Shown: positions 22,415-63,658 of the stretch, one piece after another | How the letters are laid out: the number at the start of each line of letters is the position of its first letter | Position numbering within the stretch: position 1 is the stretch's first letter | IMG/VR virus record: IMGVR_UViG_3300011980_000002 | Location: 159,033-223,032 of that record | Strand: one strand, 5' to 3' | DNA length: 64,000 nucleotides | DNA from: a virus | Notes under the pieces: model-generated | Databases searched by the model: none | The model's input: only the letters and a program-made list of their open reading frames with translations | What the model was told of the DNA's origin: nothing | Position numbers and translations under genes: made by a program

Positions 22415-22603
22415 ATGTCAGATATAGTAACTGTTATGAGAAAAAGAGAATTAGCAAAGGCTAGTGAGATTTTAAGAAGTTTGGATGAAAGAATTAGTAA
22501 GGACCTCGATGGTGGACATACACCTGAAAGGTATCATGAATGGCTCGATATTGTGGATTTGAAATATATCATAGAGAGTTTAGTAAAACTCGAAGAGTCA
22601 TAA
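22415..22603 (+). CDS. Small early-cassette protein, unknown function
   Basis: 62-aa ORF behind early motif 22361 and the fixed SD. Its own terminator lies at 22609. Confidence 0.55.
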   Translation: MSDIVTVMRKRELAKASEILRSLDERISKDLDGGHTPERYHEWLDIVDLKYIIESLVKLEES

Positions 22604-26600: not shown

Positions 26601-29600
26601 TAGGTGGAGCAGCAGTTGGAGCTGCGAAATCTGTATTACTTGGTAATGGATTTTTAACAGGAATGGTTGGAAACATCATAGGCGGACCATTAGCTGGAGC
26701 ATTACTTGGTTCTATTGGTGGAATAGCTTTAAGATCTGAAGCTTTTAAAACTTTCTTATTTGGTGATATGGATAAAGTGGATGCACACGGAAATCGTGGA
26801 TGGCATAAGGGAATAATCCCAATGTTTAAAGGTATCTTTAAGAAAAATGATGGTACGACAGATGAAGGTAAATCAATGCTTGGAATGGCTGGTATTGGTG
26901 CTGGAGTTGGTTATTTATCTGCGGCTGTTATTGGTAAGATGGGATTTTTAGGTGCCATGGCAACCCCATTTGGTCCGATTGGTGGTGCTATTGCAGGTTT
27001 AGCATTATCTATTAAAGCATCTCAAGGTGGATTTAGAGAATGGTTATTTGGTAAGGAAAATGAAGATGGAACAAAATCTGCTGGTATATTAGGAAGATTT
27101 GCTAATATGTTAAATGCAGAATTACTTACACCATTTAAACAAGGTGCAATGGAATTTGCATTAGATACTAGAGACTTCTTAATAGATAAGATTATGGCTC
27201 CTATTGAATTTGCTATAGAACCATTTGCAAATGCAATGAAAGACTTAGGTGATAAAATTAAGAAAACCTTTGAGAAAGTTGGTAATTTTATCGTTGATTC
27301 TATAAAAGAACACATGATAAAACCTATAACTGAAACTATTGGTAAGTACATATTATCACCTATAAGAAAAACATTCGGTATATTATTTAAATTAACTACA
27401 GGAATAATTAAATCTATCGTAGCTGCTCCATTTTCTGCTATAGGAATGATGGCTAATTACGGTGAATATAAAGAGCGTAAGCGTAGTAGAAGAATGGCTA
27501 TTGATGATGTCTATGAAGAACAAGGTTTACTTGGTGGATTAATTCATCAAGGTAAGGTTATGCTTAACTATGGTGGAGCTAGAGAAGCTGCTAACTATAA
27601 ACATCATAGATATTCTGACTGGGGTGAGCGTAAGAAACGTTATGAAGCTGATAGATTAAGAAGAGCTGAAGAAAGAAAAACCCAAAAAGAAGAGGGTAGA
27701 AGAAATGTCCGTAATAGGATATTAATGGCTCGTTATTCTGGTGGAGAATTATTAGAAGATAGTGAAGAAAATCGTGCTAGATTAGAGGAGATGCTAAAAA
27801 ATAGTCCTCGTAAGCGTAAACTATTTGGATTATTAGCTGATAAACCTAATTTCAAAGGTGCTGCTACTGAAGAAAATAGATCTACCAAATTAGATAATAG
27901 CAATATTATCAAAAATGCAGATAGTCCAGGTTCTCCAGTAGATGAAAGACAGTTGGGTACTCAGTTAAGTATCTTAGATTTACTTAGAAAGATATTTGGT
28001 CTAAATAAGGATAATAAGAAACTTAAAGGGTCAAGAAAATTTACTGGTGGAAGAAGAACTACAACAGAAGATGGTGAAAATCCAGAGTCTCAAACAGACG
28101 AAGAGGTTATTAACGATGAAGATGAAAATAGACCAGCTCATAAATCTTTATTCCAAAGATTAAGAGAATATAATTATGGTAATTTAAATCCATTCAAGAG
28201 ATTCTTCGGAGATAAAGCAGATAAAGGTGACAGACCTCGTATAAGATATTATGCCGAAGGTGGAGACCATAAAGAAGATGGAATGGCTGTAGTAGGAGAA
28301 GAAGGACCGGAGTTAGTAAGATTAGCTAGAGGTTCTAGGATATTTGGTGGTAGAAAACCATTGCCTGTTACAGTTGTTGATATGAATAGTAAAGCTGTTA
28401 GTAAGTTTAAAGTAGCCACTGCTCCTAAAATATCTGAAGAAGCTGGAGTTACAGTAACCAGAAGAAGTCTCATTGATAAACAGAGAGAAGAGGATAAATC
28501 AGATTACCAGAAACAAAAAGATGCTGGTAAACTTGAGAATATTGAGAAGAGAAAACTCGAAGAAGAAAAGCTTAATATGGAACGAGAAAATCATGACAAT
28601 ATTAAAGCTACAAGAGAAACTCAAGAGAAATTCTCATTAGGATGGGGTAAGATATTCTCTAAAAAAGGAATAATTACTGCTGGATTTATGATACTATTAC
28701 CACTATTAATCAAATGGTTAATGGGAAAAGGTGGTGATGGTGGTGGAATCAGTGGTCCAGATATCGGTAAACAAGTTTTAAACGATTTATCATTCGGACA
28801 AGACCATTTACAAGATGGAAAAAGTACTCCTGAAATGATAAAAGAAACCATGGATGATACTAAGCATCTTTTTAAAGGTGATATATGGAAATGGGTAACA
28901 TCTGATGGTGGATGGGATCATGAAAGCGGTGCTAAACTAAATGCATTAGGGCATATTCCAGTTGCTCTTGGTGGATTATTAAGACCTTTCCTAAAAACTG
29001 GTACTAAACAAAATAAAGCTGTGATGAATTTCATCAATGGTTTTAAGAATAGTAAATTCTTAGGATTTGGTAAAAGACAACTTGGAAGAGCTGGTAGTGC
29101 TATAGGTTCAGGTGCAGGTCGTTTTGGTACAAGAGCATTAGAATACATGGATGAAGCTGGAGCTGGTATTAATCTTGCAGTTAATATGAGAGCTGCTAAT
29201 CCAGGTTCAAGAATGAAAGATGTACTTAAAGATATGAAACTCATTAAACAAGGTGAGGGTTCATATAGAGAAGCATTAGAAACCATGAAAACATTCCAGA
29301 ATTCAGGATACGGAAGTATGGATGAAGCTCTTGGAATGATGGGATATGGTGGAGAAGGATATAAAGTACTTGGAAAAGGTAGTGGTGTCGGAGATGACAT
29401 AGTTAGAAATACAAGAAGAGTAATAGGTCCAAATGCTGCTAAAACCGGTGGTCTCCGTGAAACAATGATGCGTCAGAAAGAAATGGCTAGATTAGCTAAA
29501 AACGAAACTAGTGTTGGTAATAAATACTTGGCTAGTTTAGCTGATGATGGCGATGAACTTGCTAAATTATTAGGTGATACATCTGGAGCAACTAACTCTG

Positions 29601-32600
29601 AAATACTTAGAACCTTTAAGGGTGATAAAAACTTTGCAAGAACTATTGGACAAAAACAGTTAGCAAATGCTGGAGAAGAAACCGCAAATTCTTTCTGGAG
29701 AAAGAGCGTAGGTTTAGGAGACGATTTAGGTGAAGCTGGTGCTAAACTTGGACAAACATTCGGAGATGATGGTTTAGAGCTAGCCGCTAAAGCTGGTTCA
29801 TTCTCAGATGATGCTGCAAGAGCTGCCGGAAAAGCTGGTAAAGGATTTACTGATGATGCTTTAAGAGTTGCATCTAAATCTATAGGAAGTTTGATGGATG
29901 AATTCTGGAAAGTTGCAGCTAAAGTTGGTGGAAAGATTGGTAGTAAAATGCCATCTTTTGTAGATGACATACTTAGAGCAATTGGAAAGAAATTCGCATA
30001 CTTTACAGCTAAACTTGCTGCAATTATGGGTAAGACTGCTGCATTAGCAGCTACAGTTGTAGGTTATTTAGCAGACCAAACATTATGGATTACTGTTGGT
30101 GCAGTCGATGGTTTAACAGGTGCTGCTAGACTATTCCAGATAGATAGACCTGACTGGATAATGGTTGCATTATCTGGTGCTATAGGTGCATTTAAAGGAA
30201 GTACAGTTGGTTCTATACTTGACTTAATAAATGAAATAGTTCATAGTGTATTAGGGCTAGATATGTTCCATGAACTTGCTTCTTGGGTTTATGGATTTTT
30301 AGCAGGTAATGAGAAATACCAGAATTTACTAAGACAAAAAGAAGAGTTTAAAAATCAATTCTTAGAGGATGATGAGGCTTCTTTAAGAAAGCAATATGAA
30401 GCATATCTTGGAATTACTGGTACTAATGAAAATCAAGTATCATTTGAGAAATTCATGGAGCATGTTAATAAAGGTGATATCAAAGTTAAGACTGAATCTT
30501 TTGCAGATTACAATGAAAGAAAACATGCTTCAGTTTTAGGTCATTTAGGAAGAGGTACTGTTAATGCAATCAATGCTACGGGAAACTTCTTAGTAGGAAC
30601 AGATAGCCAATCATGGAGAGACCAAATGGGTAATACATGGGTGGTTAAAGATGATCGAAAAGGAATAGCTCAAGTTTACAGTAAAGATGGACAGATGCTC
30701 GGTGAGATGAGTGCTGAGAATATTGATAAAGAAAACTGGAAGTATAACGGTAAACAAGAAGGTAGAGGTGCTGTCGATGTTATTGGAGATGGTATTACTA
30801 CTGCTACGAACGCTATAGGAGATGCGTACAACACTGTAAGAGCTAATCCATTTGGACGAGCTTCTGTTGCTGCACTAACTATGGGCACAAGTGAACTCTG
30901 GGATTTTGCAAGTAACCCTGCTCAATATATGTCAGGTATGGGAAAAACCATGGGACAAGGAGCTGGTGCATTATGGGGCGGTATGAAAGCTGCTGGTAAA
31001 GGTATTTCTGATTTTGCAGGAGCGGCATGGAATGGTATAGGTGCCGCTGGTGATAAATTAGGTGAATTCTTTGCTCCTATAGGAAAGGGATTTAATAATG
31101 TACTTAAAAACTTATTCGCACCATTGATTGGAGAAGTAAAGCTATTTAGTAGTGATTTCTTAATGAGAAATGCTAAAGTTCCTGAAGCATATGCTAAAGC
31201 TGGTGACATTAGTGGTTTATGGTCAAGCTTAGATGCAGGTATGGAAGGTGGCTACAATCAAGATAGTGATGATGCATCTCTAATAAGAGGTGTTGGTGGA
31301 GCTGTTAGTAGAATTGCAGGATTTTTCTCAAGAATATATTACACATTTCCAGCAGCGTTTAGTGCTCTAGGAAATTGGTGGGATGATACTGTAACTAAAC
31401 CATTTAGAGAATTTTCAAGTAACGCTCAACCTAGAATAGATAGTATAAAAAGTCAGATAGACGCTGCTGCTGCTGCCGGTGATATTGCTAGTATAGCTAG
31501 TGGCGTTGGTGTTGGTCGTGGACCAACATTAGGTGGTTCAGGTATGCTTGAAGATTTGTATGTGAATGTTATGACATTTTTACCATATATTGGCGGTACA
31601 TTTAAAGCAGGATTTAATGCTGTTGGAAAATGGTGGAACGATAATGTTGCACAACCATTTATAAATTTTGGATTAGAATTACAACCACATTATGTTTCTA
31701 TCGCTGAGAAAATAACTGAAGCAGCTTCTAATGGTGATATAGGTGCAGTTTGGAGTGCTGAAGATACAGCCGAAGGTGAACTTAGTTCATTTCAATCAAC
31801 TGTACTCGGTGCAATGTCTATTGGACCAAAAATTGGTGGTACATTTGTAGCAGGATTTAATGCTGTTGGAAAATGGTGGAATAACGCTATAGTTAAACCA
31901 TTCAAAGAATTTGCTGATAATGCTCAACCTACTATAGATGAAGTTAATGATAAAATGTGGGCTGCCGCTGCTGCCGGTGATACAGAGGCTGTTGGCGAAG
32001 CTCAAAGAATTAATACTGGTAGCCCTTTAATGAATTTGTATGTCAGTGCAATGACAATGTTTCCATGGATGGGTGCAAGTATGAAAGCCGGAGTTGTTAA
32101 GATTGGTAATATATTCTCAGAGTTCTTTAACAATGAAGGTGAGTCTATTAAGAATATGGGTAACAGTATGGCTTCATACTGGAAGACCTTGAATGGGAAA
32201 TTTGACGGGGAAGGATATCAGAAAATATCTGTCGGTGAGTTATTTACATTTGGAAAGAATTCATCTATTTCAAATACTATAGTAGGAGCCTTAACCGGTA
32301 TATTTGGAACTGTTTGGTATGTTATTAGAGCTGCTGTTGAAGAAGTTGGTGGTTTTTTCAAAAATGCTTGGGATGTGATAACTGCACCATTTAAATGGAT
32401 TGGTGATAAAGTAAAAGAACTATCAAAAGATACAGAGACTACTAAGCAATCATGGAATGATATAGTTAATAACCAAAATGTATCATCATCAACTACAACA
32501 TCCAATTATAGTAAGCGTGAATCAGCATATCTTAATAGTAATATGTGGGCTAATATGACAGATGAACAAATACGAGCAAAGGTTAAAGAACTAAATAAGA

Positions 32601-35600
32601 CTATAGGATATGATTCATATAACGCAGATGAAATAATTGCTAGCCGAAATAAAAAGAAAGAGAATAACTACTCATCTTATAGTAATACAACTATCGGTGT
32701 AGATTCTAGTGGAAATATTACTACTAAACAATCTAACGGTGGTAAAGGTGGTGGAAAGGGTGGTAAAGATATTAGTTTACCATACTTCTCACAAAAAGAC
32801 CCAAGATGGGGTAATAAGAAATACGGTAATGAAAAAATGTCAGACGCTGGTTGTGGACCTAATGTTATGGCTTCTGTAGCATCTGGTTTAGGTGGTGCAA
32901 GAGGTGGTTCAGTATCACCGATGGAAATGGCAGATTACGCTAAGGAAAAAGGATATAGAGATAGTACTGGTACTAACTGGAACTTCGTAGATGGTGCTAT
33001 TAAGGATTATGGTTTAAGTGGAACCAAACAATGGAATCCTAATGCAAGATTTATCCATGACGAAGTTAAGAAAGGTAATCCCGTTGTACTTAGTGGATAT
33101 TCACAAGGACCTTTTGACCCATATACAAGAGAAGGACATTATGTTGTTGCTACTGGAGTAGATAATAAAGGTAGAGTTACAATTAATGACCCTAGAGGTA
33201 GAGAATACTCTGGTAAGTTTGACATAAATAATGTCGCAAACTCCACAGCAGTTGGTTGGGGAGTAAGACCTGGGGGTAAAGGTGGTGGTTACGGTAGAGG
33301 TAACTTTAAAAGAGGTAAAGACGGTAAGTTTGACTACAAAGTTACACAAACCGGTACAACCACAGGTTTACAATATAAATCAGTAAAAGAATCTGCTATT
33401 GGTATACATAAAGACACATGGTTAGATAATAAAACTAATAAAGAATTAAAGTATTCACCAAATAGTACATACCGTGCACTGAATGGTAGATTACCAAGAA
33501 GTATTGTAGGTAAAGGTGAAACATTCGATATCGACCAAAGTGTAATTGAGCAGGAGAAAAATCAAGCTCTTAAAAATAAACTACACTTGTCTGAAAGAGC
33601 AATGTATAGAAAAGCGAATGAAGCATATAAGAATGAAGCTGAAAGAAAACTTGGTGCACGAGAAGGTAGATTATTTGGTGGACCACTATATCAATTATAT
33701 GCGTTAGATGAGGCAAAATCTCAATATGCACTAAATCCCAAATTCCAAAGTGCTGCTAAGTTTAAACCTATAGACACGTCTGACCCAGGTTGGATGTTTA
33801 AGAAAGGTAGTGGTGCTGTATTAGGTGAGATGATAAACTCCTCTATGGGATTAAGTAGTAATAGTACATTATGGTCAAATGACAGTAATTCTTCAAGTAG
33901 TAGCGACTCATCAGGTGGTTCATACGATAGCTCCGGTGGAGACTGGGGTGGTGGAGATTACTCTGGTGGAAGTTACGATTCAGGCGGTTCATATGATTCC
34001 GGTGGTGTTTCAGATAGTGGTGGTGGAACTCCTACTATACAAGAAATATCAGTTACAAAAGGTGGTACTTGGTCATCTGATATAGAGACATATGCAAGAC
34101 AGGTTCTTTGTTCATCCATGTTACACTTACAAGGTAAATTAAGATATTCTCAAGGTGGAGATAGAAGTCAGGTTATGGATGGTTTCACCAAAGGACATGG
34201 AGTCGGAGACTGTTCATCTACAATATCTATACTTCATAAATATATATGTGGATTAAGTATTGGTGATTGGTCAGGTGCCATAAGATCTTCTAATGTAGGT
34301 TTAGTTGTTGATAGTAATACTGGTGGTGTTCCTGATGAATCTAAACTACTCCCTGGTGATGTTATATGTTATAACAACCATGTAGAGATGTATTTAGGTA
34401 ATGATCAATGTATCGGTCACGGTGCTGGTATGGGACCTAAACTTAAACAAATGAAGAGTTATACAGAATCAAGAAATGCTAGAGGTTCTGGAAAGAAATA
34501 TATATGTACTAAGAGATTCGTACATGATGGAAATGTTACACAAGTTAATGTACCACCTGGAGTTACTCCAGATGCTAAATATGCTGTACCTGGAACAAGT
34601 TCAGGTGGAAGTAATGGTAAATCTGGTGGAGTGGGTTCATCAGGTGGTGGATTATTTGGTAATATAATGCAGCAATTCTCTACATTCATTGGAGATATTG
34701 GAAATAATGCAATGGAATTTTTCCTCACTGGAAAATGGGGAGATAAGTATACATTTGGTGGCGGACCCGCAGACCAAAACTCTTCAGATAGTGCAAATTC
34801 ACCATCAATATCTGAAGGTAGTGGAACTCCAGATAATTATACTGGAGATGTCGACTATATAGGTAGATATATAAAACCATTTGAGTCAGGTAAGGAAGGT
34901 TCATCCAAGATATCATCTGGTAAGGGAGACTCAATTGGCGGTCCGTCATTTGGTACATTCCAATTCCCTTCATATTGGGAAACTACTGCTGGTAGTAAAG
35001 CTGGAAAGCTTAGAAAATTCTGGGAACCATATGCTTCTAAATACCCAGGAGTTCAACCTGGTAATAATGATGCATTCAAAAAAGCATGGAAAGAAGCATC
35101 TGTTAAAGAACAACCAGGCTTCTTAAAAAGAGAGGTTGAAGTAAATGGACAGATGACACTTGCCCCTAATCTAAATAAGATGAGGAGTGTTTTTGGTGAT
35201 ATTGATGTTGATAGAGCTTTACAGGAAGCTATATATTCATCAATCAATATATATGGTAGTGCTAGTAGAACTCTTGATTCATTTAATCAAGCAGGTGTAC
35301 CAAATTCATCCGTTTATAAACAAAATCCAAAAGAGGCTCTCAAGAAGTTCTACCAAGCTAAATATGATAGAATTCCTATAAACTTTAAATCATCTCCAGG
35401 TTCATGGAAAGGTATAAGAAATAGATTTAGTAAAGAGGAACCTGCTATAGTAATTCCTCTAGTTGGGCAAAAACCTTTACCTGCATGGGATAAAACTGTA
35501 CCAACTGGTGGTGGAAAAGGTGGTTCGGATGACCCATTCGTAGAATTAGGTAGACTCTCAGATGGAGCTGATATAACCAAACAAGATTTCAAAGTCAATA

Positions 35601-35989
35601 CTGGTGGTAAATACGCTAGAAAGATTGGTGGTGGAAGAGGTTATGAAAGAAGATATGCTTCTGTAAGAAGATCTATGAATAGTAAAGGTTATTTCACTAA
35701 ACCAGTTTCTGGTGGTGGAAGAGGTGGTTCTAATGATGCTATGTTAGAACTATTAGCTATCATGATAAATAGATTAACTGACATTGCTAATTCATCTGCA
35801 AGTTCAGATGCTAAGTTAACAATGCTTAAAGATTTACATGGTAATACTAATGTAGTTAGTACCAATATAAATGGTGCGGGTAATAATGGGAAAACTAATG
35901 TAATAGTTACTAAAGAAAATAGTCCACAATTATTACCAATACAATCAAGAGCATCTAAAACTGCTGAAAGAATTGCCAGAGGTTATTAA
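23663..35989 (+). CDS. Giant virion/tail protein (4108 aa): tape-measure-like core fused to three peptidoglycan-hydrolase-type domains
   Basis: Single uninterrupted ORF with SD AAAGGGGGA and an AACA-N6-TA motif at 23601. Contains Gly-zipper hydrophobic segments, charged coiled-coil stretches and the tape-measure-type motif VVGEEGPELV. It also has a C39-like domain, an NlpC/P60-like domain and a lysozyme-like domain (listed separately). Confidence 0.85.
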   Translation: MARNRNGSILKSFSNNIRSKSKQISTPWLKNAMKGIGAAAKDTLKDIAPVLYDASTTAGKASKDAITLLRGNTNATAMNKLISKNIYVRTARDMIKWTMEDLRSGKLFNEDRVTDILMGGDGSGSAMSDPDSMFSDWDMDDDGSSGNVIINNNSDSSNAGFALAVNEGLRESTMAQLKGQQAMVDTMVAISGSQILQNQEIGNQIITQLTNVNNNLIAINEFNKTTMTSFVTTVTAYMEKMGKKADEYDSSEEKFDPASIFSGGFNLGNYGKHIKKNVKTAFENSDIGFVHSLVSDPETLKLITANPLGALTTLTMKAMTPKLMKKTMSQIDEAVAGFMPSLLMRIGELSESRELGWKGKLKRWIGDVFGLQNVSNTDRNKLNPTKNITKDAAVFDGITRHTIVEIIPKYLSESVSYLKELVHVNGGNVGRAMGSREIFDFNKGRFSTVAKSRRDLYEQIRSSGTDVIASGKLGRHIESNSGAAYTDKDGKYDNKALEQWNDMVTKFYDQLERMNKMIDMTNFSEDGDIMKAIKGTGYGGKMAEFLKQLMIEASKDTSITTTANSDFQRARYSRKATIKDMNENPDYYNLSAVANLSEDIDQTMDRVFGGVFGNPNEIKQSGSMVKTLSDIRYILNRGINVRITGHGPYQTFTGQETNISSITRENAPQRNTSPQSSQNDEDKAGPTKLEEMSTEEMINHVAENGTLYNDDTKTTKKVKDIMHALLFGNASMAFSGVADIFISKINGVIDVIDKDFFQPMKASLFGTKDEQGYSRNGVFSGMQQQFTDYYRSIVRQFNGKGYTDSKGQKHEDITDPSKSVVGQIKATVSDIKETVVDYVLGPKDSETGKREKGMGLVNIFRDGIEGWGKAIFGETEDGKPKFDAEKFKKEVSERMPSAVTGALGGAVLGSMTSGSLLGWLVGGPVTGSILGLATGFASKSKKFQQFLFGEKDEEGNIVRDSGIINKKMQDWFKKNKVPIIGGAAVGAAKSVLLGNGFLTGMVGNIIGGPLAGALLGSIGGIALRSEAFKTFLFGDMDKVDAHGNRGWHKGIIPMFKGIFKKNDGTTDEGKSMLGMAGIGAGVGYLSAAVIGKMGFLGAMATPFGPIGGAIAGLALSIKASQGGFREWLFGKENEDGTKSAGILGRFANMLNAELLTPFKQGAMEFALDTRDFLIDKIMAPIEFAIEPFANAMKDLGDKIKKTFEKVGNFIVDSIKEHMIKPITETIGKYILSPIRKTFGILFKLTTGIIKSIVAAPFSAIGMMANYGEYKERKRSRRMAIDDVYEEQGLLGGLIHQGKVMLNYGGAREAANYKHHRYSDWGERKKRYEADRLRRAEERKTQKEEGRRNVRNRILMARYSGGELLEDSEENRARLEEMLKNSPRKRKLFGLLADKPNFKGAATEENRSTKLDNSNIIKNADSPGSPVDERQLGTQLSILDLLRKIFGLNKDNKKLKGSRKFTGGRRTTTEDGENPESQTDEEVINDEDENRPAHKSLFQRLREYNYGNLNPFKRFFGDKADKGDRPRIRYYAEGGDHKEDGMAVVGEEGPELVRLARGSRIFGGRKPLPVTVVDMNSKAVSKFKVATAPKISEEAGVTVTRRSLIDKQREEDKSDYQKQKDAGKLENIEKRKLEEEKLNMERENHDNIKATRETQEKFSLGWGKIFSKKGIITAGFMILLPLLIKWLMGKGGDGGGISGPDIGKQVLNDLSFGQDHLQDGKSTPEMIKETMDDTKHLFKGDIWKWVTSDGGWDHESGAKLNALGHIPVALGGLLRPFLKTGTKQNKAVMNFINGFKNSKFLGFGKRQLGRAGSAIGSGAGRFGTRALEYMDEAGAGINLAVNMRAANPGSRMKDVLKDMKLIKQGEGSYREALETMKTFQNSGYGSMDEALGMMGYGGEGYKVLGKGSGVGDDIVRNTRRVIGPNAAKTGGLRETMMRQKEMARLAKNETSVGNKYLASLADDGDELAKLLGDTSGATNSEILRTFKGDKNFARTIGQKQLANAGEETANSFWRKSVGLGDDLGEAGAKLGQTFGDDGLELAAKAGSFSDDAARAAGKAGKGFTDDALRVASKSIGSLMDEFWKVAAKVGGKIGSKMPSFVDDILRAIGKKFAYFTAKLAAIMGKTAALAATVVGYLADQTLWITVGAVDGLTGAARLFQIDRPDWIMVALSGAIGAFKGSTVGSILDLINEIVHSVLGLDMFHELASWVYGFLAGNEKYQNLLRQKEEFKNQFLEDDEASLRKQYEAYLGITGTNENQVSFEKFMEHVNKGDIKVKTESFADYNERKHASVLGHLGRGTVNAINATGNFLVGTDSQSWRDQMGNTWVVKDDRKGIAQVYSKDGQMLGEMSAENIDKENWKYNGKQEGRGAVDVIGDGITTATNAIGDAYNTVRANPFGRASVAALTMGTSELWDFASNPAQYMSGMGKTMGQGAGALWGGMKAAGKGISDFAGAAWNGIGAAGDKLGEFFAPIGKGFNNVLKNLFAPLIGEVKLFSSDFLMRNAKVPEAYAKAGDISGLWSSLDAGMEGGYNQDSDDASLIRGVGGAVSRIAGFFSRIYYTFPAAFSALGNWWDDTVTKPFREFSSNAQPRIDSIKSQIDAAAAAGDIASIASGVGVGRGPTLGGSGMLEDLYVNVMTFLPYIGGTFKAGFNAVGKWWNDNVAQPFINFGLELQPHYVSIAEKITEAASNGDIGAVWSAEDTAEGELSSFQSTVLGAMSIGPKIGGTFVAGFNAVGKWWNNAIVKPFKEFADNAQPTIDEVNDKMWAAAAAGDTEAVGEAQRINTGSPLMNLYVSAMTMFPWMGASMKAGVVKIGNIFSEFFNNEGESIKNMGNSMASYWKTLNGKFDGEGYQKISVGELFTFGKNSSISNTIVGALTGIFGTVWYVIRAAVEEVGGFFKNAWDVITAPFKWIGDKVKELSKDTETTKQSWNDIVNNQNVSSSTTTSNYSKRESAYLNSNMWANMTDEQIRAKVKELNKTIGYDSYNADEIIASRNKKKENNYSSYSNTTIGVDSSGNITTKQSNGGKGGGKGGKDISLPYFSQKDPRWGNKKYGNEKMSDAGCGPNVMASVASGLGGARGGSVSPMEMADYAKEKGYRDSTGTNWNFVDGAIKDYGLSGTKQWNPNARFIHDEVKKGNPVVLSGYSQGPFDPYTREGHYVVATGVDNKGRVTINDPRGREYSGKFDINNVANSTAVGWGVRPGGKGGGYGRGNFKRGKDGKFDYKVTQTGTTTGLQYKSVKESAIGIHKDTWLDNKTNKELKYSPNSTYRALNGRLPRSIVGKGETFDIDQSVIEQEKNQALKNKLHLSERAMYRKANEAYKNEAERKLGAREGRLFGGPLYQLYALDEAKSQYALNPKFQSAAKFKPIDTSDPGWMFKKGSGAVLGEMINSSMGLSSNSTLWSNDSNSSSSSDSSGGSYDSSGGDWGGGDYSGGSYDSGGSYDSGGVSDSGGGTPTIQEISVTKGGTWSSDIETYARQVLCSSMLHLQGKLRYSQGGDRSQVMDGFTKGHGVGDCSSTISILHKYICGLSIGDWSGAIRSSNVGLVVDSNTGGVPDESKLLPGDVICYNNHVEMYLGNDQCIGHGAGMGPKLKQMKSYTESRNARGSGKKYICTKRFVHDGNVTQVNVPPGVTPDAKYAVPGTSSGGSNGKSGGVGSSGGGLFGNIMQQFSTFIGDIGNNAMEFFLTGKWGDKYTFGGGPADQNSSDSANSPSISEGSGTPDNYTGDVDYIGRYIKPFESGKEGSSKISSGKGDSIGGPSFGTFQFPSYWETTAGSKAGKLRKFWEPYASKYPGVQPGNNDAFKKAWKEASVKEQPGFLKREVEVNGQMTLAPNLNKMRSVFGDIDVDRALQEAIYSSINIYGSASRTLDSFNQAGVPNSSVYKQNPKEALKKFYQAKYDRIPINFKSSPGSWKGIRNRFSKEEPAIVIPLVGQKPLPAWDKTVPTGGGKGGSDDPFVELGRLSDGADITKQDFKVNTGGKYARKIGGGRGYERRYASVRRSMNSKGYFTKPVSGGGRGGSNDAMLELLAIMINRLTDIANSSASSDAKLTMLKDLHGNTNVVSTNINGAGNNGKTNVIVTKENSPQLLPIQSRASKTAERIARGY
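28295..28312 (+). other. GEEGPE motif inside giant protein
   Basis: GEEGPELV resembles the G-E-x-G-P-E motif I recall as recurrent in phage tail tape-measure proteins. Confidence 0.5.
31346..32150 (+). repeat. In-frame tandem repeats (81-85 aa period) inside the giant gene
   Basis: FPAAFSALGNWWDDTVTKPFREFSSNAQPRIDSI..AAAAAGDI, GGTFKAGFNAVGKWWNDNVAQPFINFGLELQPHYVSI..AASNGDI and GGTFVAGFNAVGKWWNNAIVKPFKEFADNAQPTIDEV..AAAAGDT. The TGGTGG codons lie at 31376, 31631 and 31874. There is a 31-nt identical block GCAGGATTTAATGCTGTTGGAAAATGGTGGA in copies 2 and 3, plus a degenerate 4th copy. Confidence 0.8.
32775..33200 (+). other. Peptidase C39-like (papain-fold) domain of giant protein
   Basis: LPYFSQKDPRWGNKKYG...MSDAGCGPNVMASVAS ... 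GHYVVATGVDNKGRVTINDPRG shows a Q...CGP...H...D pattern. Confidence 0.6.
34100..34440 (+). other. NlpC/P60-type cysteine peptidase domain of giant protein
   Basis: GVGDCSSTISILHKY ... LLPGDVICYNNHVEMYLGNDQCIGHG matches the G.DCSG ... PGD...... HV.iY.G pattern. Confidence 0.7.
34850..35400 (+). other. Lysozyme / lytic-transglycosylase-like domain of giant protein
   Basis: YIKPFESGKEGSSKISSGKGDSIGGPSFGTFQF has a Glu-Ser ... G-x-x-Q-F arrangement reminiscent of SLT / phage tail lysozyme domains. This is a weaker call. Confidence 0.4.
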
Positions 35990-39384: not shown

Positions 39385-40407
39385 GTGGCAAAAACAACGA
39401 TTATGAATTTTCAAAGAAATATTAACGATCCTAATAGAGAGGTCTATAGGAATAGTAAAAGAGTTATTCTTAAACCAGTAAAGAAAAGAATTATTAATGG
39501 TAATATGATAATGAATATATTTGCACTTATGATATTACTATATGCAGTTATTTATGTATCATCAATTAAGTTAATGGATGTTAAAGCAGATGAAAATACT
39601 ATCACAAATACAAGTAGCGTTCAGTATGTTCCTATAGTAGAAACTAATGGTGTTCCTAAAGAAATACCATTAGTAATTCCAGTAACAGAAGTTCCATCTA
39701 CTGAAACTGTAGAAAGTACTGAAGCTACAAATAATAATGATAATGAACCAATTAGAGTATCTAAACACGATACATCTAATGAAGGTCCTATTGTAAAGAT
39801 ACGAGAAGAGGAAAGAGAATTATCTGACCTTGAAAAGTATGGTTATGATATGGAACAGTTCACAATCAAGTACGCAGCAACAGGTATACATATCAGAGAA
39901 CAGGCTAATGCTGATTCTAATGTAATCGATAGCGTTGAAAAGAATACTGAGCTTAAAGTATTAGGAGATGCTAAAGATAATAGTGATTGGTATGCTGTTA
40001 AGTATAATGACAATGTATATTATGTTGCAAAGAACTATGTATCAGATGAATACATAGAAAGAAACTATACAGATGAAGATTTAGATATCTTGGCTCATGT
40101 GATATGTGGTGAAGCACAAACATATGATGACCAGGAACAACAGTATATCGCATCTGTAGTATTAAACAGAGTTAAACACTCTGCTTACCCAAATACTATC
40201 AGAGGTGTAGTATTCCAAAGAGGACAGTATAGTTGTACTTGGGATGGAAACTATTATAGAACACCTACAGAAAGGAATTGGGCTAATGCAAAATACATTC
40301 TTGAGAATGGTAGTATATTACCAGATAATGTAGTATACCAATCTCAAGTTAGACAAGGTCGCGGAGTTTATGTGAAAACAAAATATCATTATTATTGTAT
40401 TAAGTAA
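39385..40407 (+). CDS. Membrane-anchored cell-wall hydrolase: TM anchor + SH3b + SleB/CwlJ (Hydrolase_2) domain
   Basis: EDLDILAHVICGEAQTYDDQEQQYIASVVLNRVKHSAYPNTIRGVVFQRGQYSCTWDG matches the SleB domain (LLArvV.aEArgE...AVAaVvLNRv....FP.Tv.gVi.Q.gQF). SH3b segment GIHIREQANADSNVIDSVEKNTELKVLG..WYAVKY. TM segment IMNIFALMILLYAVIYVS. The start is uncertain (GTG 39385 or ATG 39403) and neither has a good SD. Confidence 0.8.
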   Translation: MAKTTIMNFQRNINDPNREVYRNSKRVILKPVKKRIINGNMIMNIFALMILLYAVIYVSSIKLMDVKADENTITNTSSVQYVPIVETNGVPKEIPLVIPVTEVPSTETVESTEATNNNDNEPIRVSKHDTSNEGPIVKIREEERELSDLEKYGYDMEQFTIKYAATGIHIREQANADSNVIDSVEKNTELKVLGDAKDNSDWYAVKYNDNVYYVAKNYVSDEYIERNYTDEDLDILAHVICGEAQTYDDQEQQYIASVVLNRVKHSAYPNTIRGVVFQRGQYSCTWDGNYYRTPTERNWANAKYILENGSILPDNVVYQSQVRQGRGVYVKTKYHYYCIK

Positions 40408-40432
40408 TTAAAGTTACTTAATAAGAAGTAAG

Positions 40433-40474
40433 ATAAAGATACTGTATAATAAAAATACAGTATCTTTATTTTTT
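40433..40474 (+). terminator. Cassette terminator
   Basis: ATAAAGATACTGTAT / ATACAGTATCTTTAT followed by a T-run. Confidence 0.75.
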
Positions 40475-40496
40475 ATCCGTATTTCCTATATATACC

Positions 40497-40533
40497 GATA
40501 TACTATTTATGTGTAAGTAAAATAAATATATAT
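40497..40533 (+). promoter_or_regulatory. Early-class promoter-like motif (class 1)
   Basis: GATATACTATTTATGTGTAAGTAAAATAAATATATAT, with ATCCGTATTTCC box upstream. Confidence 0.65.
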
Positions 40534-40549
40534 AAAGGAGAAAAGAAAT

Positions 40550-40792
40550 ATGAAAAAGAATATTTATTCAATTTCTGGAACAATCCAGGAATCATATGAA
40601 GTCGCTTATGAGCTTGGCGACTTCGTCCAACTCGGAAGCTCAGATTACATAGTCGCTTCAGACTTCAGTGGCGACTATGCAGCAGCTGTTGCTTGGGGAA
40701 ACAGTTGCAACATCGGAGACCCCCAACCATGGGAGCTGGAGACCTTGAAAGAGGTCGACCCAGACTTCCACCAAAAATATATAGCCTCATAA
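40550..40792 (+). CDS. Small acidic early-cassette protein encoded in a GC-rich island
   Basis: 80-aa ORF behind early motif 40497 and the fixed SD, with its own terminator at 40779. About 53% G+C over 40611-40780 by hand count. The protein is strongly acidic. Confidence 0.55.
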   Translation: MKKNIYSISGTIQESYEVAYELGDFVQLGSSDYIVASDFSGDYAAAVAWGNSCNIGDPQPWELETLKEVDPDFHQKYIAS

Positions 40793-40811
40793 GGGGCTAT
40801 ATATTTTTTTG
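40779..40811 (+). terminator. Intrinsic terminator of the GC-island gene
   Basis: ATATAGCC / GGCTATAT followed by T7. Confidence 0.65.
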
Positions 40812-40876
40812 TAATAATCTCTTAAAGCACTTTATTATAACTAAACTATATGAAAGGAACATAGATAAATTTCATT

Positions 40877-48990: not shown

Positions 48991-49140
48991 ATGTTAAACT
49001 TATCAACTATATCAAAGTCAGACGCGAAGTATGCTGAGGTTAAACTTAATCTTTCAATTATGGAGTTAGAGAATTCCATAAGAAAGATTGAAAGGGCTAC
49101 CAAGGTGGTGAAGGCATTAAATCCTTCACTAAAGAAATAA
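48991..49140 (+). CDS. Small basic early-cassette protein
   Basis: The track ORF starts at 48922, inside the promoter motif. ATG 48991 sits behind SD AAAGGAG, giving 49 aa. Terminator at 49147. Confidence 0.45.
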   Translation: MLNLSTISKSDAKYAEVKLNLSIMELENSIRKIERATKVVKALNPSLKK

Positions 49141-49276: not shown

Positions 49277-50767
49277 ATGTCTAAGAAAAGAAAAGTTAAA
49301 CTGTATAGAAGAAACTGGGACATTGATTATATTGAATCTTTGATGACAGGACAAGGATTTACTATAACAGAAATGCCCACAGTTTCTTTAGATGGTGTTA
49401 AGAAGAAAAATCTCTATGGTCCTAGGTCAGAATTGTATGGAACTACTTATGGAGATGAACAAGAATTTGTTGAAAGATGCTCTTGTGATTGTGGTAAGAG
49501 TGTAGGATTAATTAAGAAAGGTGAGTATTGTCCTTTCTGTAATACTGTAGTAAAAGAAATCGGTGATAATATAAAATTCACCGGTTGGATATCATTAGGT
49601 AATGATAAAGTTATAAATCCTCAATATTTTAAATTGATTGGTAAAGCTATTGGTGTTACCGCTTTTAATGATATGATATCTGTAATAAAGAAGGTAGATA
49701 TTGATGGTAATATAACTACCTTAGAGAAAGATTCTCCGTTAGTAAAGAATTATACTTCTCCATTTATTGGAATTGGTGTAGATGGATTTAGAGAAAGATT
49801 CTATGAGATAATGGATTATTATGCTAAGAAGAAAAAGAATAAATCTGATTTAATAGATTTATTAAAGAGTGAAGTTAGGTCAGTATTTACTTCTCATATT
49901 CCGGTATATTCTACTAAGTTAAGACAAGAGTCTATAACAGAGGATACTTATTATTATGGTGGAATAGATAAAGAGATTAATTCTATGATACCAATAACTA
50001 AATTATTGGAAACTGCTACAGATATAGAAAGACCACATTACTTATTCAGAATACAAGAGAAAGTAAATAAAATGTGGGATATAAATTTCCAATTAATTAA
50101 TGGAAAAGAAGGTATAATAAGAGGACAGATTATGGGTGGTAGTTTAAACTACACCTCAAGAAATGTTATTATACCTGATTACGAATTACATGATGATGAA
50201 GTTGATGTATCATATTTTACAATGTTAGAATTAGCTAAAGAAACTATTGTGAGATATTTAATGAAGTCTGAAGATATTACCATTAATGAAGCCCATACCC
50301 AATGGAAATATGCTAAGATATCTTTTAGTGAGAAGATATATCAAATTATGTTATATATAATAGAGAAAGAACAACCGTGTATTGTACTTAATAGGAATCC
50401 TACTCTTAATTTCTATTCTCTATTATTTATGAAAATAAGACATGTTACAAGAAATCATAATCACTATACATTATCTGTACCAATCGCGATATTAACCGGA
50501 CTAAATGCAGACTTTGATGGTGATGTATTGAATATAATTCTAGTAACTCTTAAAGAACTTAAATATCTATTTAGGAAATTCAATCCTATAGAAAGAATGA
50601 TTGTCAGTAAAGATACCGGATTATTAAATGATTATTTCAGTATTACTAAAGGACAATTAATAGATTTATTCTATTTTCTTGAGATAGACTCTGATATATC
50701 AGAATTTACTCCTAGTAAAAATTCAGTTGGAAAGAGTCGTATGTTGGAAAAGATTAAACTTAGTTAA
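49277..50767 (+). CDS. Multisubunit RNA polymerase beta-prime-like subunit, set A, N-terminal half
   Basis: Zn ribbon RCSCDCGKSVGLIKKGEYCPFCN near the N-terminus. Catalytic loop LNADFDGDVLNI near the C-terminus. Confidence 0.85.
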   Translation: MSKKRKVKLYRRNWDIDYIESLMTGQGFTITEMPTVSLDGVKKKNLYGPRSELYGTTYGDEQEFVERCSCDCGKSVGLIKKGEYCPFCNTVVKEIGDNIKFTGWISLGNDKVINPQYFKLIGKAIGVTAFNDMISVIKKVDIDGNITTLEKDSPLVKNYTSPFIGIGVDGFRERFYEIMDYYAKKKKNKSDLIDLLKSEVRSVFTSHIPVYSTKLRQESITEDTYYYGGIDKEINSMIPITKLLETATDIERPHYLFRIQEKVNKMWDINFQLINGKEGIIRGQIMGGSLNYTSRNVIIPDYELHDDEVDVSYFTMLELAKETIVRYLMKSEDITINEAHTQWKYAKISFSEKIYQIMLYIIEKEQPCIVLNRNPTLNFYSLLFMKIRHVTRNHNHYTLSVPIAILTGLNADFDGDVLNIILVTLKELKYLFRKFNPIERMIVSKDTGLLNDYFSITKGQLIDLFYFLEIDSDISEFTPSKNSVGKSRMLEKIKLS

Positions 50768-50911: not shown

Positions 50912-51382
50912 ATGAATAACTACTATGATTATATCATTATAGGGATATATGTGTATTTCACATTAATGTGGTGTACACTTTCTGTATGTTCCATAATGAT
51001 GAAGAAAGATATTATGGAAGTAACAAGTAAACGATATAAGAAGGATAAACTCGTTAAGAACATATCCACAACTATATCAGCAATATTAGTCTTACTAGGA
51101 TTATTAGCATTTTATGAGAATACATCTCATGCAATATATCTAATCTATATAATAGTGATGATAATATCATTACTATTATTAGTAGTACCATTACCATATA
51201 CATTCATGTTGGTATATGTGTTACTAGATAGATATATGAAATATAAATCTGAAAAATACAAGGTGATGTATAATATACTTATATCAGCACCTGTATCATT
51301 TATATTATTTGGTACTGCCTCAGGATGGATTGGGTATTGTACCATGTCACCATTGATAATGTATATGGTGAATAATTATTAA
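50912..51382 (+). CDS. Polytopic small membrane protein (early)
   Basis: 156 aa with 4-5 hydrophobic segments. Lies behind early motif 50855 and the fixed SD. Confidence 0.6.
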   Translation: MNNYYDYIIIGIYVYFTLMWCTLSVCSIMMKKDIMEVTSKRYKKDKLVKNISTTISAILVLLGLLAFYENTSHAIYLIYIIVMIISLLLLVVPLPYTFMLVYVLLDRYMKYKSEKYKVMYNILISAPVSFILFGTASGWIGYCTMSPLIMYMVNNY

Positions 51383-51448
51383 AATAAATCCATTTTAGAA
51401 TAGATAATTTAAAAAAATATATAGTCAAATAAAAAGGAGAAAAGAAAT

Positions 51449-51613
51449 ATGTTAAATTTCATCGTGATAATAGTGTCAATGATTTTAGGAAACAAACTCG
51501 TTAAAGCTTTTACAAGGAATATGATAATGACAGGATATATGTATTTTATGTTCAATGTCTTTGGAATGGCATTGGTATATGTAGTTATTGGAAGTATTCT
51601 GGGATTAGTATAG
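51449..51613 (+). CDS. Unlisted 54-aa membrane protein
   Basis: Not in the ORF track (<60 aa). Sequence MLNFIVIIVSMILGNKLVKAFTRNMIMTGYMYFMFNVFGMALVYVVIGSILGLV. Preceded by the exact fixed SD AAAAGGAGAAAAGAAATATG. Confidence 0.5.
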   Translation: MLNFIVIIVSMILGNKLVKAFTRNMIMTGYMYFMFNVFGMALVYVVIGSILGLV

Positions 51614-51635
51614 TAAAGGTTTAGAGGTGATTAAT

Positions 51636-51935
51636 ATGAAATTAGAAAACTTTATAGTTGGAAATAGAAGTAGTATAAGTAATCTAATAGCAACAGCAGT
51701 AACTGGTGCAGTAGTTACTGCTATAACCGGAGCGGCAACAATATTATTTGATTTATCTGATTTCAGGTCAGTGAGAATTATTAAAGAACCTGATACAGAT
51801 GACCCAACAAGATATATGATGGAAGAGATGACGACAACAAATATACTGAGAGACGCATATCAGGCTAAAAGAGAAGCCAAAATGAGAGAAGATGATGGAA
51901 AGAAAAAGAAGAAAAAGAAACATCATCATGATTAA
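51636..51935 (+). CDS. Small membrane protein with KKKKKKKHHHD tail
   Basis: The track start is GTG 51627. ATG 51636 has GAGG 8 nt upstream. TM segment LIATAVTGAVVTAITGAATILF, then a charged tail ending GKKKKKKKHHHD. Confidence 0.5.
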   Translation: MKLENFIVGNRSSISNLIATAVTGAVVTAITGAATILFDLSDFRSVRIIKEPDTDDPTRYMMEEMTTTNILRDAYQAKREAKMREDDGKKKKKKKHHHD

Positions 51936-51943
51936 GAAAGAAG

Positions 51944-52150
51944 GTGTTTATAATGAATAATAGAAGTGGCGTTATGGACGCCTTAATACGAATAAGTGTA
52001 TCTGTAGTGGCAGCAGGTGTAGGTTCCTTGCTGTCAGATGCTGCTACTAATAAATTCAACGCGTATGCAGATAAATGCGAAGCAAAGATAAAAATACAAC
52101 AGAAGAAAGAGAATAACATATTCAGAAAATTATTCTCTAAGAAGAAATAA
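51944..52150 (+). CDS. Small membrane protein with basic tail
   Basis: 68 aa with SD GAAGGTG. TM segment ALIRISVSVVAAGVGSLL. Lys-rich C-terminus. Confidence 0.5.
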   Translation: MFIMNNRSGVMDALIRISVSVVAAGVGSLLSDAATNKFNAYADKCEAKIKIQQKKENNIFRKLFSKKK

Positions 52151-52235: not shown

Positions 52236-52270
52236 AATATACTATTTATCTGTAAATAAAATAAATATAT
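52236..52270 (+). promoter_or_regulatory. Early-class promoter-like motif (class 1)
   Basis: AATATACTATTTATCTGTAAATAAAATAAATATAT, with ATTCGTATTTTA box upstream. Confidence 0.65.
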
Positions 52271-52273
52271 TGA

Positions 52274-52309
52274 AGGGTGGAGATGACATCAAGAGCCCAA
52301 GGAGTTAAT
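52274..52309 (+). promoter_or_regulatory. Conserved 5' leader element, copy A
   Basis: AGGGTGGAGATGACATCAAGAGCCCAAGGAGTTAAT lies between the early motif and ATG 52310. Confidence 0.45.
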
Positions 52310-52429
52310 ATGAAGAAAAGAAATAATAACATAGTTAAAGCACTAGTTAGTGGAGTAATTTTTGGAACGTTTGCGTTCCTCGTCTCTATTGTGAATAATA
52401 GAGACGATAAAAAGAAAGGGGGTGAATAA
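52310..52429 (+). CDS. Unlisted 39-aa membrane peptide (early cassette)
   Basis: MKKRNNNIVKALVSGVIFGTFAFLVSIVNNRDDKKKGGE. Lies behind early motif 52236, the conserved leader 52274-52309 and SD AAGGAG. Confidence 0.4.
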   Translation: MKKRNNNIVKALVSGVIFGTFAFLVSIVNNRDDKKKGGE

Positions 52430-52539
52430 TCCTCTTGAAAATTTATGGAAGGGGAAATTTCTTCCATTATATTACATCAAAGAAAGGGGGTGTAATATAA
52501 TGGAAGAAACTGCCCTCATGTTATAATTCTGTAATAAAT

Positions 52540-52577
52540 AAAAGGGTATGATTCTAAAATACCCTTTTATTTTTTTG
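52540..52577 (+). terminator. Intrinsic terminator
   Basis: AAAAGGGTAT / ATACCCTTTT followed by T7. Confidence 0.75.
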
Positions 52578-52596
52578 ATTTATTTTAACTTACTTA

Positions 52597-52625
52597 TTGA
52601 CAATTATGTAAGTTAAATTTATAAT
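52597..52625 (+). promoter_or_regulatory. Perfect sigma-A/sigma-70 consensus promoter
   Basis: TTGACA (52597-52602), an exact 17-nt spacer, then TATAAT (52620-52625), 23 nt before ATG 52648. The inverted repeat TAACTTAC/GTAAGTTA (52586-52593 / 52608-52615) straddles the -35 element. Confidence 0.6.
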
Positions 52626-52647
52626 AAGAAAGGAGACTCTTTAAATA

Positions 52648-52917
52648 ATGGATGCAAAATTTTTTTGTTTATCTAAAGAAGATTCACAAAACCCAGAGAA
52701 GTCTGGATTAAAGTATGCAATGTCTAAAAAGGGTGAATGGAAACCATGTCCGATTTCTGATATGCTTGCACAGATAAATCAATATCAATCTGCTACATCT
52801 TATATTGTCATTGATAATGTCGCTTATACGATATTTAAAGATTATATAATATTATCAGAAAATACAAGACTGTATATATTAAAAGATAGAAACTTAGATA
52901 CTGATAGATTAAGTTAG
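52648..52917 (+). CDS. Hypothetical protein
   Basis: 89-aa ORF with SD AAAGGAG. Downstream of the perfect sigma-A-type promoter at 52597. Confidence 0.5.
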   Translation: MDAKFFCLSKEDSQNPEKSGLKYAMSKKGEWKPCPISDMLAQINQYQSATSYIVIDNVAYTIFKDYIILSENTRLYILKDRNLDTDRLS

Positions 52918-60122: not shown

Positions 60123-60139
60123 TATGCTCATATATGAGC

Positions 60140-60177
60140 AGGGTGGAGATAACGTCAAGAGCCCAGAAGGAGTTTAT
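60140..60177 (+). promoter_or_regulatory. Conserved 5' leader element, copy B
   Basis: AGGGTGGAGATAACGTCAAGAGCCCAGAAGGAGTTTAT lies between the early motif and ATG 60178. Preceded by the hairpin TGCTCATATATGAGCA. Confidence 0.45.
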
Positions 60178-63448: not shown

Positions 63449-63464
63449 AGTAAATAACAAATTT

Positions 63465-63511: not shown

Positions 63512-63527
63512 TTATTTGATCAAAAAA

Positions 63528-63608: not shown

Positions 63609-63658
63609 AATTTATTTTTTTACAAATTTCATTATTTCAAATAATTTCTCAAAAAATA

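Follow-up and report, generated by a model that had tools for sequence, protein, structure and literature searches.

Ugi, which inhibits uracil-DNA glycosylase and is found in the Bacillus phages PBS1, PBS2 and AR9, is the textbook small acidic early DNA mimic, and the phage group concerned includes phages with uracil-DNA. Mimics of the Ocr, ArdA, Arn and AcrIIA4 type are defined by structure, with carboxylates that trace the DNA backbone. Accessory genes that interact with the host typically show fast protein evolution, and classical morons reside in prophages, where they are expressed during lysogeny from host-type promoters. In AR9 and other phiKZ-related phages, the early promoters, which belong to the virion RNA polymerase (RNAP), are extended motifs, rich in A and T and strongly conserved, and AR9 has 41 of them (PMC5312081). 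Here we analyse a stretch of 64,000 nt from the virus record IMGVR_UViG_3300011980_000002 (positions 159,033 to 223,032 of the record; hereafter the window, whose numbering is used throughout), and in it ORF80, an open reading frame (ORF) of 80 codons on the + strand with a GC-rich core that stands out in an AT-rich genome.

We hold with moderate confidence that ORF80 is an old accessory gene in an insulated early unit, that its GC-rich core is kept by selection partly for mRNA structure, and that its product is a small acidic protein. More specifically, a terminator, a 60-nt promoter module, a ribosome-binding site, 80 codons and a second terminator would make up an insulated one-gene transcription unit, from which the virion RNAP would transcribe a monocistronic mRNA of ~290 nt straight after infection. 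Selection may hold the GC content at least partly for the structure of this mRNA, which may stabilise the transcript, tune translation or serve an RNA-binding factor, and would add to a milder shift in codon usage common to the genes driven by the same module. Like other small acidic early proteins of phages, the ORF80 product may have a host target and serve takeover or counter-defence.

Composition, age and probable upkeep of the GC-rich gene

The window has 28.3% G+C overall, and its 170-nt windows have a mean of 0.283 (sd 0.056). A sliding scan places the highest of these windows in the whole 64 kb, at 0.541 G+C, at 40603-40772, inside ORF80. The original prediction, made from the letters alone, had described a GC-rich island at 40611-40780 that encodes a strongly acidic 80-aa protein with atypical codons; sequence, ORF and translation agree with this description and the island is exceptional in the window, although its G+C count is 88 of 170 nt (51.8%) rather than the 91 of 170 (about 53%) given. 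The runner-up peaks (0.40-0.49) all lie at 23.9-37.3 kb, within ORFs of 4108 and 620 aa, and have high G+C at first and second codon positions (GC1 and GC2) with a value at third positions (GC3) of merely 0.18, so that amino-acid content drives those peaks. ORF80 is the sole GC island in the window that owes its G+C to third codon positions: with a GC3 of 0.47 it lies 5.6 sd from the other ORFs (mean 0.172, sd 0.053), and GC1 and GC2 are raised too. The codon-adaptation index (CAI), with weights taken from the long ORFs of the window, is 0.378, the lowest among 59 ORFs, which bears out the atypical codon choice. The onset is abrupt: codons 1-15 have a genome-like 27% GC, and codons 16-75 have 52% GC with a GC3 of 0.55.

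A word search of 5.8e9 proteins recovered three related clusters with 96%, 77% and 77% identity to ORF80, to which a scan of JGI metagenomes added one copy (L005, 90% identity) and a Logan contig a partial copy (L009). Wherever the flanks suffice, the gene occupies the same place, between a hydrolase gene and a gene of 255 aa. Substitutions at first, second and third codon positions number 16/2/19 relative to the copy in L002 and 16/5/23 relative to that in L004, the ratio of nonsynonymous to synonymous divergence (dN/dS) is 0.07-0.35, and frameshifts and stops occur in none of five copies. This substitution pattern demonstrates a genuine protein-coding gene under purifying selection. The protein is also among the fastest-evolving of its neighbourhood: it is 76% identical to that of L002, compared with 87-98% for the neighbouring proteins except for one of 110 aa (77%), at similar synonymous divergence (dS).

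All five copies keep the island, with GC of 0.47-0.535 across 40611-40780 and GC3 of 0.46-0.56; the flanking genes have GC3 of 0.09-0.22 at a dS similar to that of ORF80. GC3 is no lower in the most diverged copies (dS up to 0.87) than in the closest ones. Singleton substitutions polarised by majority, a crude parsimony on small numbers, comprise 18 AT>GC and 16 GC>AT changes, or 9 and 6 at third positions. Drift towards the genome equilibrium (~18% GC3) would give about four GC>AT changes for every AT>GC change (binomial p=8e-4), and the four branches that can be polarised with an outgroup give the same picture on their own (9 versus 6). Judged by these comparisons, the composition of the ORF80 core is stationary, with no decay towards the 17% GC3 of the genome.

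Three further relatives, L006, L007 and L008, whose 255-aa gene is 64% identical and whose contigs measure 210 kb, are without ORF80; there the hydrolase gene adjoins a 257-aa gene across a 195-nt spacer. Removing the presence/absence segment listed in Table 1, which lies between two TATATA stretches, turns the window into an L006-type spacer almost base for base. The spacer of L006 retains the upstream terminator, the start of the promoter module, TATCC(G/A)TATTT, and decayed versions of the last ORF80 codons and of the downstream terminator. Loss by deletion in the L006 lineage is the simpler reading of this scar, by which ORF80 predates the split of that clade and is dispensable. The comparison of relatives thus identifies ORF80 as an old, dispensable accessory gene restricted to one phage clade. 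The original prediction had argued for recent acquisition from a source of higher GC; given the deletion scar and the absence of decay towards AT in five diverged copies, that claim lacks support. Relatives do carry the gene with equally high GC, and homology to a housekeeping function, which the same prediction had considered alongside, did not turn up.

One rival account is passive import: the core would come from an organism of higher GC, its GC content and hairpins would have no role of their own, and selection would not act at the nucleic-acid level. We regard this as unlikely, while noting what speaks for it. The sharp boundary between codons 15 and 16 points to a fusion of a native 5' module with foreign sequence, first and second codon positions are enriched along with the third, residues 25-53 bear a weak likeness to a single unit of the DUF5650 repeat, and the cassette genes (those behind the repeated promoter module) look foreign in codon usage as a class. 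However, no donor appeared in 1.8e9 representative proteins, 185,579 genomes or viral contigs. A HMMER scan of those proteins returned only the cluster of ORF80 itself and repeat proteins with repetition-inflated scores; phage records (INPHARED, 50,697), IMG/VR contigs and GTDB genomes held no homologue beyond the same cluster and repeat-inflated spurious matches; and neither a paralogue nor an internal source of the GC core was found in the window. The flux of substitutions shows no net GC>AT excess where the genome bias predicts ~4:1, GC3 is equally high in the most diverged copies, the gene is older than the split from the L006 clade, and the folding described below is stronger than composition predicts (z=-4.5).

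The unusual codon usage of ORF80 is the extreme of a general trend among the cassette genes. ORF80 and seven other genes behind the module account for the eight lowest CAI values of the 59 ORFs, and module genes with atypical codons are found at 9211-9456, 22415-22603, 48991-49140, 50912-52150, 52307-52429 and 60178-60537. Cassette genes have a median GC3 of 0.26 compared with 0.156 for the rest (Mann-Whitney p=2e-6; 6.5e-6 without ORF80), in line with the earlier impression that other cassette genes are mildly GC-enriched. The trend may reflect a temporal codon regime, a foreign origin of accessory cassettes, or both. As an account of ORF80 itself, the temporal regime would have early genes fit the host tRNA pool at the start of infection, with ORF80 as the most adapted or most expressed of them and its structure as a by-product. 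The class effect is what it predicts, and about half of the phages studied are documented to use codons differently in early and late genes (PMC5683454). We regard the account as somewhat less likely than capture from a foreign source. Against it, the GC3 of ORF80 lies far beyond that of the other cassette genes (0.18-0.36), the gene uses GTC and GAG and yet prefers TAT over TAC by 5:1, which is no simple preference for C-ending codons, and in the related phage AR9 the early gene ugi, with a GC3 of 0.13, shows no GC enrichment.

A likely conserved RNA structure in the core

The ORF80 core forms the most stable RNA fold in the window, with three well-conserved hairpins and one that is less conserved (Table 1). 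The sense strand of 40590-40815 folds with z=-6.8, and the GC core proper (40589-40772) reaches -69.5 kcal/mol, with z=-4.5 on the + strand and -2.8 on the - strand. Both of the two lowest folding energies among 1419 windows of 180 nt fall at the ORF80 locus, which stays in the top three outliers once folding energy is regressed on GC. A consensus fold of five sequences consists of hairpins H1-H3 and the weaker H4, with 94.7% of cells paired. The AGUCGC/GCGACU core is invariant in H1 and H2 of all copies, and the H2 stem is invariant throughout (5/5 sequences). The arrangement AGTCGC-N(6-20)-GCGACT occurs nowhere else in the window (0 expected by chance), and four of the ten GTCGC pentamers of the window sit in these two hairpins.

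Three base pairs change on both sides, one in H1 and two in H3. Pair 12:32 of H1 is G-C in three sequences and A-U in two; pair 98:114 of H3 is U-A in two, C-G in two and C.A, an intermediate, in one; and pair 96:116 of H3 is seen as G-C, G-U and A-U. For H3, the partial copy L009 shows the fully compensated form. Several G.U pairs would be A.C mismatches on the opposite strand and make sense only as + strand RNA. Third codon positions vary less often in stems (11/34) than outside them (20/33, p=0.03), and permutation of synonymous codons gives z from -1.8 to -4.6, significant in every homologue. A conserved mRNA structure in the ORF80 core is likely from this comparison, and the constraint at the nucleic-acid level that the original prediction had put forward as the alternative to acquisition is plausible.

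Several observations weigh against selection for structure as we propose it, or limit its reach. The comparison of stems with the remaining positions is partly circular, since those sequences also yielded the structure. The covariation score, which comes from five related sequences only, is modest, with 13 of 500 shuffles reaching it. The permutation signal is non-specific, with 6 of 19 other small genes of the window scoring as low or lower, and we therefore downgraded that test. Unpaired third positions still have 43% GC, so structure alone cannot explain the composition; mRNA structure cannot be the whole reason for it. The stems encode invariant Val-Ala and Gly-Asp dipeptides, and protein constraint could thus preserve them. 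Lastly, the label "early" rests on analogy, and the module differs in sequence from the AR9 consensus.

The twin hairpins also correspond to a repeat in the peptide: 40600-40622 and 40651-40676 encode E-V-A-Y-E-L-G-D-F and I-V-A-S-D-F-S-G-D-Y, 17 codons apart, which suggests internal duplication of a hairpin-encoding segment. Mimicry of CRISPR repeats was considered for them and set aside, since the 51-nt period and the differing loops are unlike an array.

The same features raise the question of whether the transcript is the effector, for example by titrating a host RNA-binding protein or nuclease as a decoy or sponge, either beside the protein or with the ORF secondary or spurious. The strength of the fold, the conserved hairpins with their compensatory pairs, the unique and invariant twin AGUCGC/GCGACU hairpins and a strong promoter and terminator of its own, which would yield a discrete RNA of ~290 nt, would all suit such a role. 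Against this, second codon positions are near-invariant (2/37 substitutions) and dN/dS stays below 0.35, the ribosome-binding site and an AT-rich, unstructured start region are conserved, and no Rfam family comes near its threshold, which together make an RNA effector improbable. Its purely non-coding form is very unlikely, as the coding signature excludes it for practical purposes. ARAGORN found no tRNA or tmRNA genes, and Rfam 15 gave no match in the window at gathering thresholds (best score in a relaxed local scan, 19.9 bits against a threshold of 70); together with the coding signature, these results also ruled out a tRNA or ribozyme.

There is an outside chance that the core is bifunctional and selected as such, serving both as early mRNA for a new family of small acidic host-targeting proteins (anti-defence proteins or DNA mimics) and as a twin-hairpin RNA that acts during host takeover as ligand, decoy or protected, long-lived transcript. 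If true, this would explain how 180 nt at 52% GC have been held over long divergence in a phage of 28% GC. A cis-acting element at the DNA level (replication origin, packaging site or protein-binding site), suggested by several inverted repeats and palindromes including GGTCGACC and CAGCTG and by a minus strand that also folds better than chance, can hardly be the explanation, because the natural loss of the whole segment in a closely syntenic relative with a 210-kb genome excludes an essential site, the G.U pairs and the strand asymmetry favour RNA, and the cumulative GC skew has no inflection at ORF80.

The cassette and its surroundings

The elements said to frame ORF80, namely a terminator hairpin upstream, the motif ATATACTATTTAT, a ribosome-binding site and a terminator downstream, are all present (Table 1). 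The upstream terminator ends the hydrolase gene and insulates the ORF80 cassette; it is probably bidirectional, because an A run precedes and a T run follows its hairpin. It is identical in L001, L002 and L003 and is kept in L006, which is without ORF80. In L004 the leader differs, yet GGTGGAG still precedes the ATG. The 5' arm of the downstream terminator doubles as the last codons of ORF80 (K-Y-I-A-S-stop), and this terminator is invariant in all ORF80-bearing relatives, with a decayed remnant in L006.

Table 1. Features of the ORF80 locus in window coordinates.
Feature	Position	Strand	Description
Upstream intrinsic terminator	40430..40479	+	Hairpin with 18-nt arms (40430-40472), A run before, T run after
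Promoter module	40474..40534	+	TATCCGTATTTCC (40474-40486), TATATATA, ATATACTATTTAT (40498-40510), TGTAAGTAAAATAAATATAT
Presence/absence segment	40495..40777		283 nt, missing in L006, L007 and L008; TATATA microhomology at both ends
Shine-Dalgarno AAGGAG	40535..40540	+	9 nt ahead of ATG; conserved in L001, L002 and L005
ORF80	40550..40792	+	80-aa acidic protein, pI 4.05; accessory, fast-evolving
Hairpin H1	40596..40626	+	11-bp stem, core AGUCGC/GCGACU, codons 16-26
Hairpin H2	40648..40679	+	9-10-bp stem, core AGUCGC/GCGACU; twin of H1, 51 nt downstream
Hairpin H3	40682..40708	+	9-10-bp stem
Hairpin H4	40730..40770	+	Composite stem (helices 5 and 6), 90-92% of cells paired, broken in L002 and L004
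Intrinsic terminator of the cassette	40773..40811	+	Arms 40773-40786 / 40795-40808 (14 nt, 100% complementary), then T run

The promoter module recurs near-identically seven times in the window, at 9162, 22363, 40498, 48938, 50856, 52237 and 60092, always on the + strand. Every copy has a terminator hairpin before it and a ribosome-binding site and ATG after it, and ~60 nt are conserved. From about -70 to +50 nt around these positions, the seven modules comprise a ATAATAGATACT...AGTATCTATTAT hairpin, TATCCGTATTTC, the ATATACTATTTAT motif and TGTAAAATAAATATAT, followed by the ribosome-binding site. The copy at 48938 lies upstream of a gene (49277-50767) whose best matches are annotated as the beta' subunit of a non-virion RNAP (nvRNAP) and in which the NADFDGD motif is present. 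Being extended, AT-rich, repeated, oriented with the downstream genes and placed before an nvRNAP gene, the module has the traits of AR9/phiKZ-type early promoters, and by this analogy it is probably a promoter of the virion RNAP. The early promoters of AR9 have the consensus AAATATATATTAT-(6N)-G, from which the module of the window differs in sequence (PMC5312081). We accept the term "early cassette" used in the original prediction because one module copy precedes the nvRNAP beta' gene, which must be expressed early; early expression of ORF80 is thus plausible by analogy, with the difference from the AR9 consensus standing against it. Taken together, the modules probably identify a regulon made up of small accessory genes, among them several for membrane proteins.

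Leaders also vary between cassettes. Those at 52237 and 60092 share a leader (52270-52306 and 60125-60177) of the form GGGTGGAGAT(G/A)AC(A/G)TCAAGAGCCCA(A/G)GGAG. ORF80 of L004 (positions 40-85 of L004) starts with a leader of this type (GAGCAGGGTGGAGAT...) instead of the AAAGGAGAAAAGAAAT of the window, so leaders have apparently been swapped between cassettes. The swapped leader is possibly a regulatory motif of the 5' untranslated region (5'UTR).

Three other non-coding elements were noted in the course of the analysis. At 40825-40859, upstream of the 255-aa gene, a block AAGCACTTTATTATAACTAAACTATATGAAAGGAA hardly varies even in the L006 clade and in L004, with conservation far above that of the adjoining coding sequence, and is a candidate for a late promoter or an element of the 5'UTR. 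In another cassette, the region 52270-52650, especially 52436-52510, which follows a 40-aa membrane ORF, folds with z=-8.5; it contains a hairpin of ~21 bp, AATTTCTTCCATTATATTACA...TGTAATATAATGGAAGAAACT, and two copies of the GGGGG-containing repeat AAAGAAAGGGGGTG. An ORF is not obvious in this region, which may represent either a non-coding RNA or a complex terminator. Once GC is corrected for, the strongest folding outlier of the window is 63451-63630, with a folding energy of -60 kcal/mol at 18% GC, where two long AT-rich inverted repeats between convergent genes probably form a bidirectional terminator.

PHROG and Pfam scans place the cassette between virion and lysis genes. Directly upstream lies a SleB-type cell-wall hydrolase with an SH3 domain (39403-40407), virion structural proteins are encoded on both sides, the window also encodes a RusA resolvase, and split genes for the beta and beta' subunits of multisubunit RNAPs lie at 2909, 9515 (minus strand), 19081 and 49277. 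At the DNA level, the window has no match among the 50,697 phage records of INPHARED. Its proteins match those of the Fusobacterium JD-Fnp phages, Listeria phage LPJP1, the Staphylococcus S6-like phages and Bacillus phages AR9 and PBS1 at 28-37% identity, and contigs with identical or related neighbour genes span 123-223 kb. The split RNAP genes and the best matches to JD-Fnp, AR9/PBS1 and S6-like phages, with related contigs of 210-223 kb, point to an uncultured AT-rich jumbo phage of at least ~220 kb, of the group with virion and non-virion multisubunit RNAPs.

Two of the genes in the window deserve mention in their own right. The 934-aa RNAP gene at 9515-12319 (minus strand) matches two PHROG families, with residues 1-519 and 539-930; these parts are separate genes in AR9, PBS1 and the Staphylococcus phages and are fused here and in the Fusobacterium JD-Fnp phages. 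The giant 4108-aa ORF (23663-35989) has 36% GC, the excess coming from codon positions 1 and 2 only. Precomputed Pfam matches of its orthologues include Peptidase_C39_2 and a T6SS VgrG3-like C-terminal domain, and the product may be a virion protein that is ejected and carries domains for cell-wall degradation.

The ORF80 protein and its counterparts in known systems

The strongly acidic character ascribed to the protein holds: it contains 13 Asp and Glu residues, four Lys and no Arg, for a net charge of -9. This charge is -8 and -6 in relatives, with eight acidic positions invariant and five variable. Pfam, PHROGs and NCBIfam have no family for ORF80 even at E<=10, and a sequence search of the PDB with its profile found nothing. 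AlphaFold2 reached a pLDDT of 49.6 with a four-sequence alignment and 56.2 with the single sequence; both models are too poor for use, and Foldseek searches with them against PDB and BFVD gave no match at E<=0.001. Both of these low-confidence runs share the order beta-alpha-beta-beta-beta-alpha-alpha. The role as DNA mimic or anti-defence protein proposed in the original prediction is a reasonable guess from the profile of the gene.

Among the repeat-protein matches, the one to the DUF5650 repeat (PF18888) may be meaningful. Residues 25-53 of ORF80 (FVQLGSSDYIVASDFSGDYAAAVAWGNSC) align with the repeat core L.NGNYVV.S..WNN..GAVTWGNG. With hhalign, the probability is 92% (E=7.5e-7) against eight aligned P0006 repeats and 55% against a single protein, and a HMMER match to a DUF5650-repeat protein has E=9.6e-5, a value inflated by the repeats; the Pfam HMM of DUF5650 itself does not match ORF80 at E<=10. 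DUF5650 occurs as ~10 tandem units of about 55 residues in large bacterial surface-type proteins, whereas ORF80 has one partial unit of 29 residues. A remote evolutionary link is possible on this alignment. No paper on the function of DUF5650 was found.

In its cassette layout ORF80 resembles phage morons and accessory cassettes, which have the same order of terminator, promoter, gene and terminator and are set between essential virion and lysis genes; like morons, it is dispensable and has an atypical composition. Unlike morons, ORF80 has as its promoter a repeated module of the phage's own, in a jumbo phage of virulent type, and its odd composition is stable instead of fading.

As a functional analogue, Ugi of AR9 and PBS1 may be the closest that can be named. 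Ugi (AR9 g104) has 84 aa and a pI of 4.13, close to the size and pI of ORF80, and AR9 ugi is a single small gene behind an annotated early promoter of its own, as ORF80 is behind its dedicated module, a resemblance and not a membership. The two phages fall within one broad group of jumbo phages in which the multisubunit RNAPs are split. Homology was nevertheless rejected, on an hhalign probability of 0.2% with five aligned residues (the shared peptide IQES) and on the dispensability of ORF80 in the L006 clade; a tblastn search with Ugi matched only Bacillus PBS1-like phages. Synteny with AR9 ugi-g105 was also dismissed, since the gene at 49277 (496 aa) encodes a beta' fragment and is no orthologue of g105. 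The two genes differ further in that AR9 ugi shows none of the GC enrichment of ORF80, and the low-confidence order of secondary structure predicted for ORF80 is not that of Ugi. Absence from a sister clade would be unexpected for an inhibitor that guards uracil-containing DNA and argues against an indispensable role.

If the favoured reading is right, with an old accessory gene whose GC core is kept partly for mRNA structure, the locus offers a clean natural test of selection on mRNA structure and composition inside a coding sequence, in a dispensable one-gene unit with three times the third-position GC level of its genome and a natural knockout in a sister phage. ORF80 is also a candidate for an early protein of host takeover or counter-defence, from a little-known clade of AT-rich jumbo phages seen in metagenomes only. 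More broadly, the conserved terminator-promoter module tags a group of genes that are probably early and accessory and that share a distinct codon usage. The practical value of ORF80 is that of a well-defined experimental target rather than of a discovery in itself.

ORF80 also resembles, in its profile, the small acidic DNA-mimicking anti-defence proteins T7 Ocr, T4 Arn, ArdA, AcrIIA4 and AcrIF2. Such proteins, as the general literature describes them, are small, net negative, fast-evolving and without known relatives, and ORF80 shares these traits along with probable early expression from a strong dedicated promoter and a pattern of presence and absence among close relatives. Several of its acidic positions are not conserved, D32, D38 and D70 turning to N or Y in relatives. 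ORF80 belongs to a familiar kind, small early accessory phage proteins without known relatives, and within this kind it is the composition of its gene that is unusual.

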